DNA of 64,000 bases. Source: Candidatus Poribacteria bacterium. GTDB lineage: Bacteria > Poribacteria > WGA-4E > WGA-3G. The notes beneath the pieces are model-generated. The model had not been told where the DNA came from and made no database searches. It saw only the letters and a program-made list of their open reading frames with translations. How positions within the stretch are numbered: position 1 is the stretch's first letter; the number at the start of each line of letters is the position of its first letter. The stretch covers positions 4,928,001-4,992,000 of the forward strand of contig OZ251518.1 of NCBI GenBank assembly GCA_965242965.1, written 5' to 3'. Of the stretch, positions 6,141 to 17,128 are shown piece after piece. Made by a program: the position numbers and the translations under genes.

Positions 6141-6460
6141 TCACGTAGGGCGAGGGCCCTCGGATGCCACACGCGCATCCGAGCGGGTTTCCCTCGCCAT
6201 GCCATCCGCGCATGCGAGCGGGTTTCCCTCGCCATGCGTCTTGCTGTCAAACCGCATCCCCCCTGTAGTTCAGGATCGCCTGAAGCTCTGGCATGTTTGC
6301 CAAGCGATCCTGACCCGTTCGGGTGCAGGCGCACCCGAACTACAGAGAGAGTGCCCTGTAGCTCAGGATCGCCTGATCCTGATCCGTTCGGGTGCAGGCG
6401 CACCCGAACTACAGAGGTGGGCCTGATGGATCTCCGGTAGGAGGGACATCCCTGTCCCGA
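6141..6460. repeat. Mosaic REP-like palindrome array between nuoH and nuoI
   Basis: GTAG-led hairpin units (GTAGGGCGAGGG..., GTTCGGGTGCAGGCGCACCCGAACTAC, GTAGGAGGGACATCCCTGTCCCGA) that recur across the window. Confidence 0.85.
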
Positions 6461-9619: not shown

Positions 9620-9945
9620 TGAGGGTGTTTCATAAATCGCTCAACGTCGCGAGGACAGGCCCCGCGCTACGGTAAAAAAACGCCGCCCCTTCACGTAGGG
9701 CGAGGGCCTGTCCCTCGCCATGCCACACGCGCAGGCGAGCGGGGTTCCCTCGCCATGCGTCTTGCTAGCAAACCGCATCACCCCTGTAGGTCAAGAGCAC
9801 CTGCTCTTGACCCGTTCGGGATCAGGCGATCCCGAACTACAGAGATGGGCCCAATGCCTGCCGGTATTCGCCCGCCCTCCAAGGCAGGATAAATACCGAC
9901 TACCGGGTTCATATCGGGACAAGGATGTCCCTCCTACCGGTGCGG
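9620..9945. repeat. IS-like terminal motif followed by a REP array
   Basis: TGAGGGTGTTTCATAAATCG at 9620-9639, then GTAG palindromes. Confidence 0.8.
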
Positions 9946-9961
9946 GGGAGATGCCCCGCGG

Positions 9962-11149
9962 TTAGCCAGCGGCCGTAGCGAAAGTTTCAGGGTTCTCCGC
10001 CGCCGCTTCATAGTCATCAAGTAGTTCCGTAATGCTCGGATTTTCGCCGCAAAGTGGGCAGTCCGCGTCGCGGTAAATTTTCACCTCACGATACGTCATC
10101 CCGAGTGCTTCATAAAGCACGAGTCGGCCGATGAGCGTTTCACCGATACCGATAATATACTTAATCGCCTCGGTGGCCATCATGACACCGATTACGCCTG
10201 GGAGCACGCCCAGGACACCCGCCTCGCTTCAGCTGGGCACCATGCCTGGGGGCGGCGGTGTCGGATACATGCACCGATAGCAAGGTCCTTCGTTCGGCTT
10301 AAAGAGGGTGACTTGCCCCTCAAATTGGAAGATGCTGCCGTGGACGATGGGCTTATTCATCAGCACGGCGGCATCGTTGACGAGGTAGCGCGTCGCGAAG
10401 TTATCGCAGCCATCGACAATCACATCGTATTCGCCGAAGATTTCCTCAACGTTGTCCGTAGTTAATCGGAGATTGTAAGGCGTGATGTCAACGTCCGGGT
10501 TGAGCGACTTAATCGTGGTGGTCGCGGACTGGACTTTCGGTGTGCCGACGGACTCCGTGCGATGGAGGATCTGGCGTTGCAAATTACTCAACTCCACGAC
10601 ATCTGAATCGATGATGCCGAGGTGTCCTACGCCAGCGGCACCGAGGTAAACGCCGGCGGGTGAACCTAAACCGCCCGCGCCGACGAGTAACACTTTGGCA
10701 TCAAGCAGTTTGGATTGCCCTCTTTCGCCGACTTCCGTGAGCATAAAGTGCCGACTATACCGGTCCAACTGTTCGTTGCTCATCGGCTTGTCTTGTGCTG
10801 TTGGGTATCCAGCGGCAGACCAGTCGCGGTATCCGCCGGCCATGGAGACGGTATCCGTGTATCCCATTTCGCGCAGCGATTTTGCGGCGAGCAGGGAGCG
10901 GAGCCCTGCGGCGCAGTAGACGATAACCTTCTGCTCGCGGTCTGGGATATAATTCTCGACAGAAAATTCGAGCATCCCGCGCGTTACATGAACAGCATCG
11001 GGGATATACCCTGCGCGATATTCGTCTTCGTCGCGGACATCAAGGAGCACGAAGTCGGCATCGTCGGCTTGGCTCGCTTTGACTTCGTCCACGGTAACTT
11101 CGGGGATTTCTGTTTTTGCCGCCTCAACGATTTGTCTATAGGATTTCAT
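9962..11149 (-). CDS. moeB: Rhodanese-MoeB/ThiF adenylyltransferase; probable selenoprotein (in-frame TGA at 10229-10231), 395 aa
   Basis: Rhodanese YCAAGLRS; RYSRH, GAGGLGS, SNLQRQ, CYRC...VPS[TGA]SEAGVLGVLPG...CPLC; the two ORF-track pieces are in one frame; ATG 11149 after AGGAG. Confidence 0.88.
10197..10214 (-). promoter_or_regulatory. Candidate bacterial SECIS hairpin
   Basis: CCUGGG-CGUGCU-CCCAGG stem-loop; 20 nt separate the UGA from the loop, which has G at position 2. Confidence 0.7.
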
Positions 11150-11922: not shown

Positions 11923-11948
11923 GCCTTAAATACTTGTCAGGAGGAAAA

Positions 11949-12167
11949 ATGGATACGCAACATACCTACACCGCTCATATTGAACACCACGGTGAGTGGT
12001 GGATTGGGTGGATCCTCGAGGTTTCTGGCGTAACGTGCCAAGAACGGACGCGAGAGGAATTGCTGGAATCGCTCAAAATGACGCTGCTTGAAATTTTAGC
12101 GTATGACGAAGAGCAAGCACGTCAACGAGCAATCCACGAATACGAGGAAATCAAGATTGCCGTATGA
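11949..12167 (+). CDS. hicB: HicB-like antitoxin (short form)
   Basis: YTAHIEHHGEWWIGWILEVSGVTCQERTREELLESL; GGAGG SD; ATGA overlap with hicA. Confidence 0.85.
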   Translation: MDTQHTYTAHIEHHGEWWIGWILEVSGVTCQERTREELLESLKMTLLEILAYDEEQARQRAIHEYEEIKIAV

Positions 12168-12349
12168 AACGGACCCAATTAATCAGGCATCTCACCCGAC
12201 ACGGATGCAAATTGGTGCGTGAAGGCAGAAGCCACTCGTTGTGGGGCAATCCTGAACTTGGCACTCGTGCCGCAGTCCCTAGGCACCAAGAAATTAATAA
12301 TCATCTGGCCCGGGAAATCTGCAAGGAACTAGAGATTCCCCGGATTTAA
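12164..12349 (+). CDS. hicA: HicA toxin (mRNA interferase)
   Basis: MKRTQLIRHL..GC..VREGRSH...VPRHQEI...ICKELEIP. Confidence 0.9.
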   Translation: MKRTQLIRHLTRHGCKLVREGRSHSLWGNPELGTRAAVPRHQEINNHLAREICKELEIPRI

Positions 12350-12388: not shown

Positions 12389-15300
12389 CTACTGAGAAAG
12401 CGTAACCCGCTCATTCGCGGCAAGATGGAATGTCCCTTCTTGGATGAGGCTGTCCACGAGAGGACGCATCCGCTGCACCAGCATCCTGCCGGTAGATTTG
12501 TAACCGAAGAGTTTCGCCGCTTCGGTGACGAGGGCATCGGGAGGCATGGAGCCCTGTGCCTCAAGCACCTGTTTCATCGCCGCGGCGATTTCTTCATCGC
12601 AGATCCACTCAATATTCAGGTTTTTCCGGCGGCGCACCTGAAGAGCACGCTCCTCGACTGTCCATAAGAAATCCCCTTTACGTTGCACGCGCCGGTTTGC
12701 CATCCGCTTTCGCTGCGCTGTCAAAATGCCCGCCTCAATTGCATCCTTAATTCGCGCGCCTGCCCGCTTGACACCCCACAAGGAACGAATGCGGAAGACC
12801 ACGGCATCAACATGGACAGGGCTTTCAACCTCCACTACCTGCTCAATGGCTAGCGCAAGCTGGCCAGGGGCTTGCTCGGGTAACGTGCCGCGGATCTGGA
12901 TGCCCAAATCGGTGCATTCAACGTAAGCATGCTGTTCGGACGGCGGTGGCGTTGCCGGCTGTGGTGGCGTTGCCGGTGTGCTTTCTTCTTCCGGGGGTTC
13001 ATCAGGAGGAGTTAACACAGGTTCTTCTGCTTTTGGCGGCGGTTCTTTTGGCGTTGCGATTTTGGCGCGTTCAACTGCTGCTAATAGCCGCTGTCCGGTT
13101 TCCGCGCGATGCCGATACCAATCAGTAGACCAGATGCGGTGAATCGTCCACCCTAATCCCTCCAACACCTGCTGTCTCAGCCGGTCCCTATCTCGCGCCA
13201 CGGGCGAACTGTGATACCGCGCGCCATCGCATTCAACGCCGAGAAGATACCGGCCCGGGGATGCAGCATCTGTTACGGCAAGATCGATGCGATAACCTGC
13301 GCATCCTACCTGTTTGCTAACGGTGTAGCCGTGGTTTGTGAGGAACTCATAGACTGCATCCTCAAACGGCGAATCGGTATCGCCGCCTGTCGGCATCGCA
13401 GTTTGCAAGTTCCGATTCTCGGCATAGTCAAGGAAGGTTTTTAGGGCCCGCACGCCGAACGGGGCACTCTCGTCTATGTGCAGCTCTGCCGCGCGGAAAT
13501 TGGAGAAGACGACGCACCGCTCCCTCGCGCGCGTGATGAGAACGTTCAAACGGCGATGCCCACCTTCTTGGTTAAGCGGGCCGAAGTTGCGATGAAGTCG
13601 TCTTGTCCCATCTTTTCCATAACCGATGCTGAGGAAGATGACATCGCGTTCATCTCCCTGAATCGTCTCCAGATTCTTGACGAAGAAATGTTCGTCACGG
13701 GTGCTGGCGAAGAAGGTTTCCATCTCTGGATGCTGACGCAACTGGAGTTCCACTTCGTCAAAGATGGCTTGTTGCTGTTTGCTACTGAAGGTGCCGACAC
13801 CGAGGCTTTTGTCCGGATACTCCTGAAAATGCTGAAAAGCGGCTTGGACGACAGCTGCCGCCTCTTTCCGATTGGCAGCACTGCGTCCCCTGTCGTAAAC
13901 CGCCTCTGGCAGATGGACAAACTTCAGTCCGAGGTGTTTCACATCTTCAAGCGGCGAAGGGAAAATGAGCAGGTTGTTGTCATAGAATTCCTGATTGGAA
14001 ACGGCGATGAGCGACTCGTGTCGGCTGCGATAGTGCCACTTTAACGCCTTCGTCGGAAACGCCATTTTGCAGTGGTGCAGAATGCTCTCCACATCAAGGA
14101 GCGTGGTGGTGCCATCGTCGGTATCCGCTTCGGTATCGTCAACGATGCTGTCAAAGAAACGGGTGGGTGGTAACTGCCGCGTATCGCCGATGACGACGGC
14201 TTGTTTGCCTCGTAAAAGCGCGCCGAGCGCGTCTTCTGGCCGGATCTGACTCGCTTCGTCAAACACGATAACGTCAAAGTTGAGCAAACTCGGGTCGCAG
14301 AATTGCGCAACAGATAGCGGGCTCATCATAAAGCACGGCTTAACTTTCTGGATCAAACCGCCGACGGTAGAAAGCAGTTTTCGGATGGGCATGTGGCCGC
14401 GCTTGCGGTTAAATTGCCCGTGGAGGATGCCGACTTCGGAGTCACGGGATGCACCGTCAATCAGACGCGGGCGGTTTTGATGCAACCGAGCGACAAGCCG
14501 TTGTTGATTCACTTTGAACGACGCATTGTCATGCTCGCGGAAATCTGCAATCTTTTTTTCGTGCAGTTCGCGTGAAAAGCCCTGCAGTGGTAGACGTTCC
14601 ATGAACGCCTCATGGAGGAGAGCATCGGCGAGGTTGCCCTCAAAACAGGCAACTAAATCTGCCGGTTCAAGTGCCGCCATGTGTTCCAAAATCGGTTTCG
14701 CAATCGTCTCTTGGCACGCTTCACGCCGCATCATAAACTGTCCCCAAGCCGTCAATTGCGAACGCGCGTCCCGCCATGAATCAAGCCGCGCGCGGAGTTC
14801 CGCAAAGGAGAGGTTTTCCTCAGACTCTCCGAAGAGGCGTTCGGCATCGGTACCGAGGCGTTGAAAGAGCCGATTGCGCTGCGCCACAAACTCGCTTTCG
14901 GCGGCGGTAATTTGAGCGACGAGCGTCTCAATTTGTTCGCGCGGGATACCTGCGCTAACGATGGCCACGGCATCTACGGCATCTTCTGTCAAAGTGCCAT
15001 CAAGCAGACAGCCGCGGAATTCGACAATCCATTCGGCAAATGCGCGCAGGAAGTCTGCATCGCTGTTTTCACCGAGCCAGTGCTCGCCGAAGAGTGCGCG
15101 CCCGGTTTGTTCGCGTTCCTGCAGTGCTTTTCGGAGATGGATGCAGTGTGCTAATTCGCCGAGTTCACTGATAAGCACCTCTGGTTTTCGGGGTGCGGTT
15201 GCTTTGTAAAAACTTTGGAATTCGCGGTTGATGAACCGGTAGCGGCTGTTCAAAATGCGGAACCAACTTGCCGACAAGACTTTATACTCGTCAAGGAGAT

Positions 15301-17128
15301 TCGCGAAGTCTTGTGTTAAGGCAGTTGACGTAAATTTTGCGTTCGCCGAGGCAAGTGCATTTTGCAAATCCTCAACCTCAGCAATCAAGGCTGCTGCGTC
15401 TGTATTCTGCCTGTCCCACGCCGTATTCAACAGCATGTCGCGTGCGGCGGGGATGGCTCTTTTCATCACGTCTGCGCCTTGCATCGCGCGTGAGAGTGCG
15501 GCGAGGGTATCAGGAAGGTGAAATTTGCATGCCTCAACGCAGGGAATGAACGCCGCTTCTAGCGCATCCAATGCGTTTTTGCACGTCTCAATCAGCGTGC
15601 TGATTTCTCCTTCAACGAGCGGCGTGATGACACCCGGCACACAGCCACGCCACGGATGCTCGGCAATCGGCATGACATGCGGTAGCAGCGCTGCTACATT
15701 CTCAAGTTGCAACTTCGCCGCGTCCCAGTCTCCCCGGTTGCTTTCAGATGGGTTATTGAACCGCGCCGACATCATCTCGCGTCCGGCGTTCTCAAAATGC
15801 CGGCGCGCGTTCTCCCGAATCCCGAATAGCATATAGGGCGATTTCCCTGTCTCGCCGATGGGTTCATGCAAGGCGTTGACATACGCGTTGAGCTCTGCCT
15901 TCTGCGAATCAACATCGGAAAAGAGACTATCCGCTTGATTTAACTGCGGCGGGTGAGCAGAGAAGGTGCGTTCCAACGCTTGCAACACCTCACGTTTATT
16001 GGACTTGTGGCTGTGCAATTCCAAGCAGAAATCGCCGAGTCCCACCCGGTCCAACCGACTTTTCACCACCTCAAGGGCGGCCATTTTTTCACTGACGAAC
16101 AGGACATTTTTGCCAGCGGCGAGCAGTTCGGCGATGATATTGGTAATCGTTTGGGACTTCCCGGTGCCAGGCGGTCCTTCCACTACCAAACTCTTGCCTA
16201 CCTTGATGTCCTCAATGACTGCGATTTGTGACGAGTCCGCGTCCATGACGTGATAGAAAGTCTCGCTAGATTGCTTGTCTACCTCATCGGGTTGAAAGCC
16301 GCCACCTCCGCCTCCCCCGCTCCCGGTTGTCTCGCCAAAAATCCTTCCGAGTAGCGGATGGGTATCCACATTCCACCCCTCGGGCTCTAAATCTTTATAC
16401 ATCACAAATTTGGTGAAACTGAAGAATTCAAGGTAAATGTCCGGCACAACGCGCCAATTTTCCTGTCCGGTGATTGCATCGTTAACAGCCTGAAAATAGG
16501 CATCAATGGCGGCCTTGTCTTCGGGCGTTTCGAGAGGGGGCAATTCCAGGCTCTGCTCCGCCAGTTTTGCCTCCAGCGAGAGATTCGGTGACAGTTCCGC
16601 GCCGCTCCATTTGAGACTGAATCGGGTGCGCACCTTCTGGCGTTCCAATTCGACAGGAATGAGCAGGAGTGGGGCGCGATGCCTACTTTCAGAGCTCGCG
16701 CTTTCTGTCCACTCCAAGAACCCCATGGCGAGATAGAGGACAGAATAGCCTTGCTCCTCAAAGACAGAACGCGCCTGCTGATGGATGTAATACAACCGCT
16801 TCTGAAGTTCGTCTCCCGGCAGAGAGGTTTGCAAATGCCGGTCTGTGTGATGTTCCGCGGGTTCGGTAGCATCATCCACCCACGGCATCGGTGCAGCTTC
16901 ATCGTCTTCAACCTCGGATACCACCGTATTTTCGGAAGGCTTGAATTGCATCGTCCGTTCGCCGAGGACGAGAATGTCAAAAACCTCTTTCGGGATTTCA
17001 TCAATTACCTGAATGCTACGCCGTCGGCTTGGCCGGAAATTGAGGAGACGGTTTCTTCCTGTCAGATCGAGGAGATTCTGCCGCGCGGCTTGCAGCTGCT
17101 CGGCGATATTTCGATTCCGATTTTTCAT
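12389..17128 (-). CDS. DUF4011 + SF1 helicase + Vsr-like nuclease + DUF3320 protein (Hhe-like antiphage candidate)
   Basis: LLDLTGRNRLLNF, GPPGTGKSQTI, FDEASQ, HYRSRHESLI, QGDERD, GVECDGARYH, GWTIHRIWSTDW. Confidence 0.88.
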   Translation of the reverse strand: MKNRNRNIAEQLQAARQNLLDLTGRNRLLNFRPSRRRSIQVIDEIPKEVFDILVLGERTMQFKPSENTVVSEVEDDEAAPMPWVDDATEPAEHHTDRHLQTSLPGDELQKRLYYIHQQARSVFEEQGYSVLYLAMGFLEWTESASSESRHRAPLLLIPVELERQKVRTRFSLKWSGAELSPNLSLEAKLAEQSLELPPLETPEDKAAIDAYFQAVNDAITGQENWRVVPDIYLEFFSFTKFVMYKDLEPEGWNVDTHPLLGRIFGETTGSGGGGGGGFQPDEVDKQSSETFYHVMDADSSQIAVIEDIKVGKSLVVEGPPGTGKSQTITNIIAELLAAGKNVLFVSEKMAALEVVKSRLDRVGLGDFCLELHSHKSNKREVLQALERTFSAHPPQLNQADSLFSDVDSQKAELNAYVNALHEPIGETGKSPYMLFGIRENARRHFENAGREMMSARFNNPSESNRGDWDAAKLQLENVAALLPHVMPIAEHPWRGCVPGVITPLVEGEISTLIETCKNALDALEAAFIPCVEACKFHLPDTLAALSRAMQGADVMKRAIPAARDMLLNTAWDRQNTDAAALIAEVEDLQNALASANAKFTSTALTQDFANLLDEYKVLSASWFRILNSRYRFINREFQSFYKATAPRKPEVLISELGELAHCIHLRKALQEREQTGRALFGEHWLGENSDADFLRAFAEWIVEFRGCLLDGTLTEDAVDAVAIVSAGIPREQIETLVAQITAAESEFVAQRNRLFQRLGTDAERLFGESEENLSFAELRARLDSWRDARSQLTAWGQFMMRREACQETIAKPILEHMAALEPADLVACFEGNLADALLHEAFMERLPLQGFSRELHEKKIADFREHDNASFKVNQQRLVARLHQNRPRLIDGASRDSEVGILHGQFNRKRGHMPIRKLLSTVGGLIQKVKPCFMMSPLSVAQFCDPSLLNFDVIVFDEASQIRPEDALGALLRGKQAVVIGDTRQLPPTRFFDSIVDDTEADTDDGTTTLLDVESILHHCKMAFPTKALKWHYRSRHESLIAVSNQEFYDNNLLIFPSPLEDVKHLGLKFVHLPEAVYDRGRSAANRKEAAAVVQAAFQHFQEYPDKSLGVGTFSSKQQQAIFDEVELQLRQHPEMETFFASTRDEHFFVKNLETIQGDERDVIFLSIGYGKDGTRRLHRNFGPLNQEGGHRRLNVLITRARERCVVFSNFRAAELHIDESAPFGVRALKTFLDYAENRNLQTAMPTGGDTDSPFEDAVYEFLTNHGYTVSKQVGCAGYRIDLAVTDAASPGRYLLGVECDGARYHSSPVARDRDRLRQQVLEGLGWTIHRIWSTDWYRHRAETGQRLLAAVERAKIATPKEPPPKAEEPVLTPPDEPPEEESTPATPPQPATPPPSEQHAYVECTDLGIQIRGTLPEQAPGQLALAIEQVVEVESPVHVDAVVFRIRSLWGVKRAGARIKDAIEAGILTAQRKRMANRRVQRKGDFLWTVEERALQVRRRKNLNIEWICDEEIAAAMKQVLEAQGSMPPDALVTEAAKLFGYKSTGRMLVQRMRPLVDSLIQEGTFHLAANERVTLSQ

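Follow-up and report, generated by a model that had tools for sequence, protein, structure and literature searches.

The question raised by the rhodanese-MoeB/ThiF gene of Candidatus Poribacteria described here is whether the UGA codon standing within its reading frame specifies selenocysteine (Sec) or brings translation to an end. The gene lies on the minus strand at positions 9962–11149 of a 64,000-nucleotide stretch of contig OZ251518.1 (positions 4,928,001 to 4,992,000; assembly GCA_965242965.1), the whole of which is referred to below as the window, and the codon, at 10229–10231 (minus strand), is the sole in-frame TGA. Comparative analysis indicates that this UGA very probably encodes Sec, the locus being a genuine bacterial selenoprotein gene. 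The same interpretation had been put forward in a first-pass annotation made from the letters of the window, and it is supported by the Sec machinery of the genome, by conservation of the TGA and by a hairpin linked to TGA forms of the gene.

Gene structure and position of the UGA codon

Translation of the complete coding sequence with TGA read as Sec (U) gives a product of 395 residues in which Sec is residue 307. The start is an ATG at 11149–11147 with AGGAGA just upstream and the stop is a TAA at 9964–9962. Within the frame a first pair of zinc ligands, C290-Y-R-C293 (10271–10282, minus strand), is followed by 13 residues, the TGA, the sequence SEAGVLG and, later, a second pair, C364-P-L-C367 (10049–10060, minus strand). 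This is exactly the arrangement outlined in the first-pass annotation, which had described one in-frame TGA between CYRC and SEAGVLG and an unshifted frame supplying the CPLC ligands. It had also anticipated that standard annotation would mishandle the gene, and public protein sets do store it as a 306-amino-acid entry named 'ThiF family adenylyltransferase'; this record is a mis-annotated fragment and the real product is of 395 amino acids.

Two domains were identified in the translated product. The N-terminal rhodanese domain (residues 20–113; 10811–11092, minus strand; Pfam PF00581, E = 4.6e-19), which also matches PDB chains 6mxv and 1yt8, carries C79-AAGLRS as its active-site loop (Cys79 codon, 10913–10915), and C79, G82, R84 and S85 do not vary in an alignment of the product with 12 full-length homologs. 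C-terminal to it lies an E1-like adenylation domain of the ThiF/MoeB type (residues 131–365; 10055–10759, minus strand; Pfam PF00899, E = 8.5e-85), the match to which comprises profile positions 1–237 of 238 and runs unbroken across the UGA, located in the crossover loop of the domain. The ATP-binding motif G157-AGGLGSP is invariant in the same alignment, as are the first zinc-ligand pair, aligning with the CxxC of MoeB, ThiF and Uba4, and C364 and C367, aligning with the C-terminal CxxC of MoeB and ThiF. As C364 and C367 are encoded 3' of the UGA, read-through is required for the enzyme to possess them, and the two-domain enzyme looks complete only when the UGA is read through. With its PF00899 domain, glycine-rich ATP motif and Cys4 zinc site the product is a predicted E1-like adenylyltransferase, and by profile score it is a whole-protein member of NCBIfam NF006444 (PRK08762, rhodanese-MoeB; 536 bits against a cut-off of 449), residues 5–384 being matched across both domains and across the UGA.

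The predicted fold is already fixed by sequence matches to solved structures of Uba4, ThiF and MoeB (E ~1e-57). In these alignments U307 stands opposite Cys187 of E. coli MoeB within the motif CVEAG (PDB 1jw9_B), a correspondence already proposed in the first-pass annotation, as well as opposite Cys184 of ThiF (PDB 1zud) and the 'SCGEAG' cysteine of Uba4 from Chaetomium (chain index 200/201). The MoeB and ThiF residue numbers were obtained by counting back in the printed alignments, and the Uba4 residue is taken as the published Cys202 because it is the sole cysteine in the aligned part of the loop, an offset in numbering being assumed. An invariant cysteine lies opposite U307 in 12 of 12 full-length homologs, two of which come from sources that possibly store U as C.

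Conservation of the TGA codon and the Sec machinery

A full-length ortholog with exactly one TGA was present in 60 of 61 close genomes, the remaining genome (G055) showing only a shorter paralog. Across the phylum, 153 of 176 Poribacteria genomes gave a match (E <= 1e-125), all with exactly one TGA; this count draws on 150 listed rows, the remaining three being taken as G039, G054 and G057, each of which has one TGA in the close-genome search. All 153 matches fall in one order, within which the families here labelled f1, f2, f3 and f4 contribute 108 of 111, nine of 11, 28 of 29 and seven of seven genomes, respectively, the last match being the genome containing the window. The six members of these families giving no match are 73–95% complete. 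No match at this threshold was obtained in the 17 genomes of families f5–f11, and five outgroup genomes carry only the shorter paralog, which has no rhodanese domain.

For closer analysis 50 orthologs were fetched, 30 from f1 and 20 from f2–f4, with identities down to 59%. All encode products of 392–401 amino acids with similar N-termini (MKSY.., MKSS.., MRSS.., LKST..), and in every one the TGA occupies residue 307 or 308 within VP[S/G]U[S/N]EAGVLGVLPG. Beyond the UGA the frame stays open for a further 85–94 codons in 50 of 50 orthologs, with no frameshifts and no further stops. Over codons 308–375 dN/dS was 0.14 (70 of 78 pairs), whilst before the UGA only 19 of 78 pairs passed the filter; with dS close to saturation, these values are approximate. 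The reading frame downstream of the UGA is under purifying selection. The first-pass annotation had allowed for a TGA private to this assembly, which is ruled out by its presence in 153 of 153 matching genomes, and for sequence data carrying TGC or TGT at the site. Contigs from three separate studies cross the site and list no variant at 10229–10231 or in the hairpin described below, nearby synonymous sites at 10190, 10244, 10247 and 10250 being variable in the same contigs.

The genome containing the window (5.70 Mb, two contigs, 94.7% complete) was searched for the genes required for Sec insertion, presence of which had been named in the first-pass annotation as a check on its proposal. The complete set was found, with selA (577 bits), selB (331 bits), a tRNA-Sec gene (selC; 78 bits) and a Sec-type selD (358 bits) all scoring above curated cut-offs in the one genome. 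The tRNA-Sec has the anticodon TCA, lies 35 nucleotides (nt) from selB and is also called as tRNA-SeC by ARAGORN. The selD gene (C1:58854–59813) likewise encodes a selenoprotein, one TGA standing in frame in the context '...VKCAG-U-ASKL...'; 17 nt downstream of its UGA begins the GGG loop of a GC-rich hairpin, an example of similar geometry within the same genome.

The hairpin 3' of the UGA and competing readings

[quoted passage not shown] Counting from the U of the UGA as 1, a 5' arm CCUGGG occupies nt 18–23 (10214–10209), the loop CGUGCU nt 24–29 (10208–10203) and a 3' arm CCCAGG nt 30–35 (10202–10197), giving distances of 14 nt from the UGA to the stem and 20 nt to the loop, with a G at loop position 2, as had been described in the first-pass annotation. 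The spacing rule for bacterial SECIS elements is 16–37 nt. The hairpin is present in the minimum-free-energy fold, the centroid fold and the consensus fold of the 50 orthologs, with 98.3% of upper-stem cells paired across the ortholog alignment. The 6-bp stem is in register in 45 of these orthologs and the other five keep five of six pairs; the changes seen in the stem are one-sided and wobble-compatible, apart from the basal pair, where there are five A·G mismatches.

It is at synonymous positions that the conservation of this region is informative. All 50 orthologs agree throughout nt 20–32 after the UGA. The comparison took in 170 codons for conserved residues in which the third base is degenerate (those for Ala, Gly, Pro, Thr, Val, Leu, Arg and Ser, some, for instance AGY for Ser, being only two-fold). 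Third-base entropy over the gene averages 1.58 bits and is zero at just four of these sites, which are the consecutive codons 313–316 encoding the inner stem and loop. Loop variants CGUGCU, GGUCCU and AGUUUUG all carry G at position 2. RNAalifold consensus folding also gave a possible weak lower stem pairing nt 10–15 with nt 40–45 after the UGA (10187–10222, minus strand), in which 85% of cells are paired and one pair is changed on both sides in two sequences, weak support for its existence.

Alternation of TGA with Cys codons among homologs, a further check suggested at the outset, proved to be real. Of 80 loci from named genomes, two (L142 and L177) were dropped because the motif search could classify neither, and the remaining 78 comprise seven with TGA versus 71 with TGC or TGT. 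The TGA forms derive from three Poribacteria, Entotheonella, a Nitrospinota metagenome-assembled genome (MAG), a Rokubacteria MAG and one unclassified MAG, whilst Cys-type members of NF006444 occur in Actinomycetota, Chloroflexota, Myxococcota, Binatia and others. The 6-bp stem is in register in six of the seven TGA forms versus none of the 71 Cys forms; in the seventh, from Entotheonella, the loop is AGUUUUG and six base pairs are restored by a one-base shift of the 3' arm (read by eye). On these comparisons the predicted hairpin is under synonymous-site constraint and is tied to the TGA forms. The 18-nt hairpin CCUGGGCGUGCUCCCAGG was found to be identical in Poribacteria, in the unclassified MAG (L109) and in the Rokubacteria MAG (L130), the proteins being approximately 56% identical. 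Identity of CCUGGGCGUGCUCCCAGG across such distant MAGs points to either strong SECIS constraint or gene transfer.

The history of the site was examined in a quick maximum-likelihood tree (IQ-TREE, LG+G4, SH-aLRT support only) of 100 rows, made up of 78 of the 80 named-genome loci, 12 of the 50 Poribacteria orthologs and 10 database proteins, with the Sec/Cys site coded alike in all rows. All 19 Sec forms fall within one 27-row subclade (support 93) alongside eight Cys forms, the Sec form from Entotheonella has a group of Cys forms as its sister (support 100) and at least two Sec/Cys state changes are needed on the tree. This placement indicates that the Sec state is concentrated in one multi-phylum subfamily, with at least one switch between Sec and Cys. 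A suggestion that Sec forms had lost the C-terminal 'EFC' cysteine of Cys forms was rejected as inconsistent, given that eight of 10 fetched f3 Sec forms keep 'EFC', with f1, f2 and f4 forms lacking it.

The genome containing the window also encodes a Cys-type MoeB/ThiF paralog without a rhodanese domain (C1:3519737–3520510; 268-amino-acid ORF, open reading frame), 64% identical to residues 123–381 of the Sec enzyme. This paralog of approximately 270 amino acids is kept in the same genome and in 58 of 60 relatives. In 20 genomes of the same order its site codon is TGT in 15 and TGC in five, three to four codons are used at each of the positions equivalent to Gly314, Val315 and Leu316, and no equivalent of the hairpin is kept. 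Sec and Cys enzymes thus coexist in these cells, presumably dividing four carrier pathways (see below) between them.

A number of observations weigh against the interpretation of UGA307 as Sec and of the hairpin as its SECIS element, or against a catalytic role for the residue. The folding energy of the hairpin is unremarkable, with z = +0.60 and 145 of 200 shuffles of the 66-nt stretch folding at least as well, so that the case for the hairpin rests on the conservation evidence. The covariation score was reached by 43 of 500 shuffles and zero upper-stem pairs are changed on both sides, although covariation is uninformative here because the stem is nearly invariant. No family matched in an Rfam scan of the window at the gathering score. 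Approximately half of the letters of the stem are dictated by the V-L-G-V-L-P-G peptide on its own, so that in part the hairpin simply follows from the encoded protein. The gene has none of the four ThiS-family genes of the genome beside it, and both selenium incorporation and passage of the ribosome beyond the UGA rest on sequence comparison. Finally, Cys187 of E. coli MoeB is reportedly dispensable, not being needed for activity, and a catalytic role for Sec307 therefore rests on Uba4 and ThiF, not on MoeB.

That the UGA is instead a real stop is very unlikely. Under this explanation the gene would encode a 306-amino-acid rhodanese-ThiF protein without the last zinc ligands, the downstream 81-codon ORF being either untranslated or, in a split gene, made as a small separate subunit. 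The 306-amino-acid entries produced by public gene callers agree with it, and there is indeed an 81-amino-acid ORF that begins with a GTG at 10207; however, this GTG is the codon for Val315 inside the invariant loop of the hairpin and has no conserved start context. Splitting of the gene does not demand that its stop be a TGA falling exactly on the position of the conserved Cys in every one of the 153 matching genomes, and neither the synonymous-site freeze on the hairpin nor its confinement to TGA forms (seven of seven, one by way of the 1-nt shift, versus none of 71 Cys forms) is explained by termination. Presence of a full Sec system in the genome also argues against it.

Equally improbable is insertion of a standard amino acid (Cys, Trp or Gly) at the UGA, whether by near-cognate suppression or through a variant code. 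In favour of this explanation, the downstream frame is clearly translated and selected and the inserted residue is deduced from nucleotide and protein comparisons. However, TGA terminates 10 other ORFs of at least 250 amino acids in the window, some of them perhaps shadow ORFs, and is the true terminator in 10 of the 50 orthologs of the rhodanese-MoeB gene itself, and therefore the genetic code is not reassigned. The genome moreover encodes dedicated tRNA-Sec, SelB and SelA, and a Cys codon, only one mutation away, is absent from the site in 153 genomes. A pseudogene or a sequencing or assembly error, although a lone in-frame stop in a well-known enzyme resembles a fresh nonsense mutation in one genome, can be set aside as already refuted by the comparative data, namely a TGA common to 153 genomes from four families, contigs from three separate studies crossing the site with no listed variant, and 50 of 50 orthologs without frameshifts or further stops and with a post-stop dN/dS of approximately 0.14.

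Proposed chemistry, candidate partners and significance

A 'Molybdopterin biosynthesis MoeB protein' was described as a new selenoprotein family in 2005 on the basis of 11 Sargasso Sea sequences (Zhang, Fomenko and Gladyshev; PMC1088965) and Sec-MoeB was recorded again, with 19 sequences, in the 2008 GOS (Global Ocean Sampling) survey (PMC2398784), so that the statement in the first-pass annotation that Sec-MoeB had been reported from marine metagenomes is correct. The family is also tabulated in reviews (PMC9312934, PMC13188914). Features shared between the published family and the Poribacteria gene are assignment to COG0476/PF00899 MoeB/ThiF, one in-frame UGA that is matched by Cys in homologs, and a stem-loop 3' of it; this comparison was made with table rows and text, the published Sec residue and any N-terminal rhodanese domain lying outside it. 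Passages of these four papers gave no host lineage, mechanism or residue role for Sec-MoeB, and no mechanism for Sec in an E1-like enzyme, no account of the present gene in Poribacteria and no functional test of the N-terminal-rhodanese-MoeB arrangement were found in the titles, abstracts and passages surveyed. A 2026 paper places Poribacteria among the phyla with Sec-type group 4 hydrogenases. As the Sec-MoeB family has been listed since 2005 the Poribacteria gene represents a new member and not a new kind of system, and current understanding is not overturned by it. The points added here are that its fixation is Poribacteria-wide, that it occurs in four further named or unclassified lineages and that Sec maps to the E1 catalytic cysteine.

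The closest functional parallel is offered by Uba4/MOCS3, the eukaryotic Urm1-activating E1 (PDB 6yub, 6yuc, 6z6s), which likewise combines E1-like adenylation and rhodanese domains in one chain and matches residues 120–333 at E ~1e-57, with U307 opposite the thioester Cys of 'SCGEAG'. The crossover-loop Cys of Uba4 is an active-site cysteine forming a thioester, which is then attacked by the rhodanese persulfide cysteine (PMC7527816). The two proteins differ in that Uba4/MOCS3 is eukaryotic and has a C-terminal rhodanese domain and Cys, whereas the Poribacteria protein is bacterial and has an N-terminal rhodanese domain and Sec. The rhodanese domain of the latter (residues 20–113) precedes the ThiF domain (131–365) instead of following it as in Uba4/MOCS3/MoeZ-type enzymes, and the MoeZ model NF005902, which has a C-terminal rhodanese, scored 394.5 bits, under its cut-off of 647; the enzyme may work like Uba4/MOCS3/MoeZ-type enzymes without being a member of that group. 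The match to NF006444 is over the full length, most of the members seen here differing in the presence of Cys in place of Sec (71 of the 78 loci that could be classified), and the name of this family, 'molybdopterin-synthase adenylyltransferase MoeB', is an annotation label. E. coli MoeB (1jw9) and ThiF (1zud) have the adenylation fold, the glycine motif for ATP binding and the Cys4 zinc site in common with the product, but are without a rhodanese domain and have Cys instead of Sec; in architecture the short Cys paralog of the Poribacteria genome is closer to them than the Sec enzyme is.

In the proposed mechanism, SelB carrying Sec-tRNA(Sec) would bind the hairpin 14 nt downstream of UGA307, Sec would be inserted and translation would then proceed to the TAA at 9962–9964. 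In the predicted product the N-terminal rhodanese domain, whose Cys79 would carry the persulfide, is joined to the MoeB/ThiF domain of E1 type and its Cys4 zinc site, and Sec307 lies in the crossover loop where Uba4 has its cysteine for thioester formation with Urm1. By analogy with Uba4, the chemistry could comprise adenylation, an acyl-selenoester and thiocarboxylate release, a scheme for and against which we find the considerations about evenly balanced. The C-terminal glycine of a ThiS/MoaD-type sulfur carrier would first be adenylated, the acyl-adenylate would be attacked by Sec307 to give an acyl-selenoester, and the Cys79 persulfide would resolve the selenoester such that the carrier leaves as a thiocarboxylate. 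Selenium might provide faster attack and release, or a site less prone to over-oxidation. ThiF C184 forms an acyl-disulfide with ThiS, and in a variant of the scheme that recalls this acyl-disulfide, Sec307 would be the resolving residue, forming a Se-S bond with Cys79.

The enzyme is inferred to activate one or more of four ThiS/MoaD-type carriers. The genome contains four ThiS-family carrier genes, one adjoining MoaE, one situated between a gene of the PAPS (3'-phosphoadenosine-5'-phosphosulfate) reductase family and a gene for a prokaryotic JAB (Mec-like) protease (locus L179, C1:1978337–1981597), one adjoining a DAO-type oxidase and one adjoining a molybdopterin-binding subunit. The L179 layout resembles CysO-type sulfur-carrier systems using rhodanese-fused E1 enzymes, and its ThiS-family carrier is a candidate partner of the Sec enzyme. 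The Sec-MoeB gene stands alone, its neighbours not being conserved, and the downstream NuoD gene is adjacent in just five of 50 loci. No informative operon was seen around either E1 paralog and, with neighbours so variable, context does not identify the pathway or carrier.

Upstream of the Sec-MoeB gene, and apparently unrelated to it, are a HicA-type toxin gene (12164–12349, plus strand; PF07927, E = 6e-9) and a 1579-amino-acid helicase-like ORF (12389–17128, minus strand). The HicA-type gene overlaps the end of a 77-amino-acid ORF (11934–12167, plus strand) with zero Pfam matches, which is probably a HicB-like antitoxin. A REP-like (repetitive extragenic palindromic) repeat, ATCGGGACA(A/G)GGATGTCCC(T/G)C, occurs in 10 copies in the window versus zero expected, at 9913–9933 and also at 6441, 18349, 18389, 18425, 18558, 26242, 26319, 29352 and 29392, one copy lying approximately 30 nt beyond the Sec-MoeB stop codon. 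Its depth in public contigs is 10^3 to 10^5 with many different flanks, as against approximately 13 to 570 for the gene in the same runs, and it is therefore an interspersed element present at very high copy number in these metagenomes. The 3' region at 9880–9965 folds well (z = -3.05).

For annotation, these data extend the product to 395 amino acids in at least 153 Poribacteria species genomes and affect some Entotheonella, Nitrospinota and Rokubacteria MAGs. The hairpin, frozen at synonymous sites and near-identical between phyla, would furnish a compact, well-defined example of a bacterial SECIS element. That Sec has been placed and kept at the E1-type crossover-loop Cys argues that this residue does chemistry in rhodanese-fused enzymes. 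We tentatively propose a 'seleno-E1' in which Sec307 would form an acyl-selenoester with a ubiquitin-like carrier, the selenium analogue of the E1 thioester, as an obligatory step for the N-terminal-rhodanese subfamily, a proposal somewhat less secure than the chemistry outlined above. The Sec state itself is fixed in a whole order of Poribacteria associated with sponges, and Entotheonella, Nitrospinota and Rokubacteria share it. If the seleno-E1 proposal is true, the crossover-loop Cys, considered dispensable in E. coli MoeB, would be the nucleophile that limits rate or robustness in bacterial E1-like enzymes fused to rhodanese. The natural Sec/Cys pairs found here, including the Cys paralog of the same cell, offer a clean comparison of thioester with selenoester chemistry in sulfur-carrier activation.

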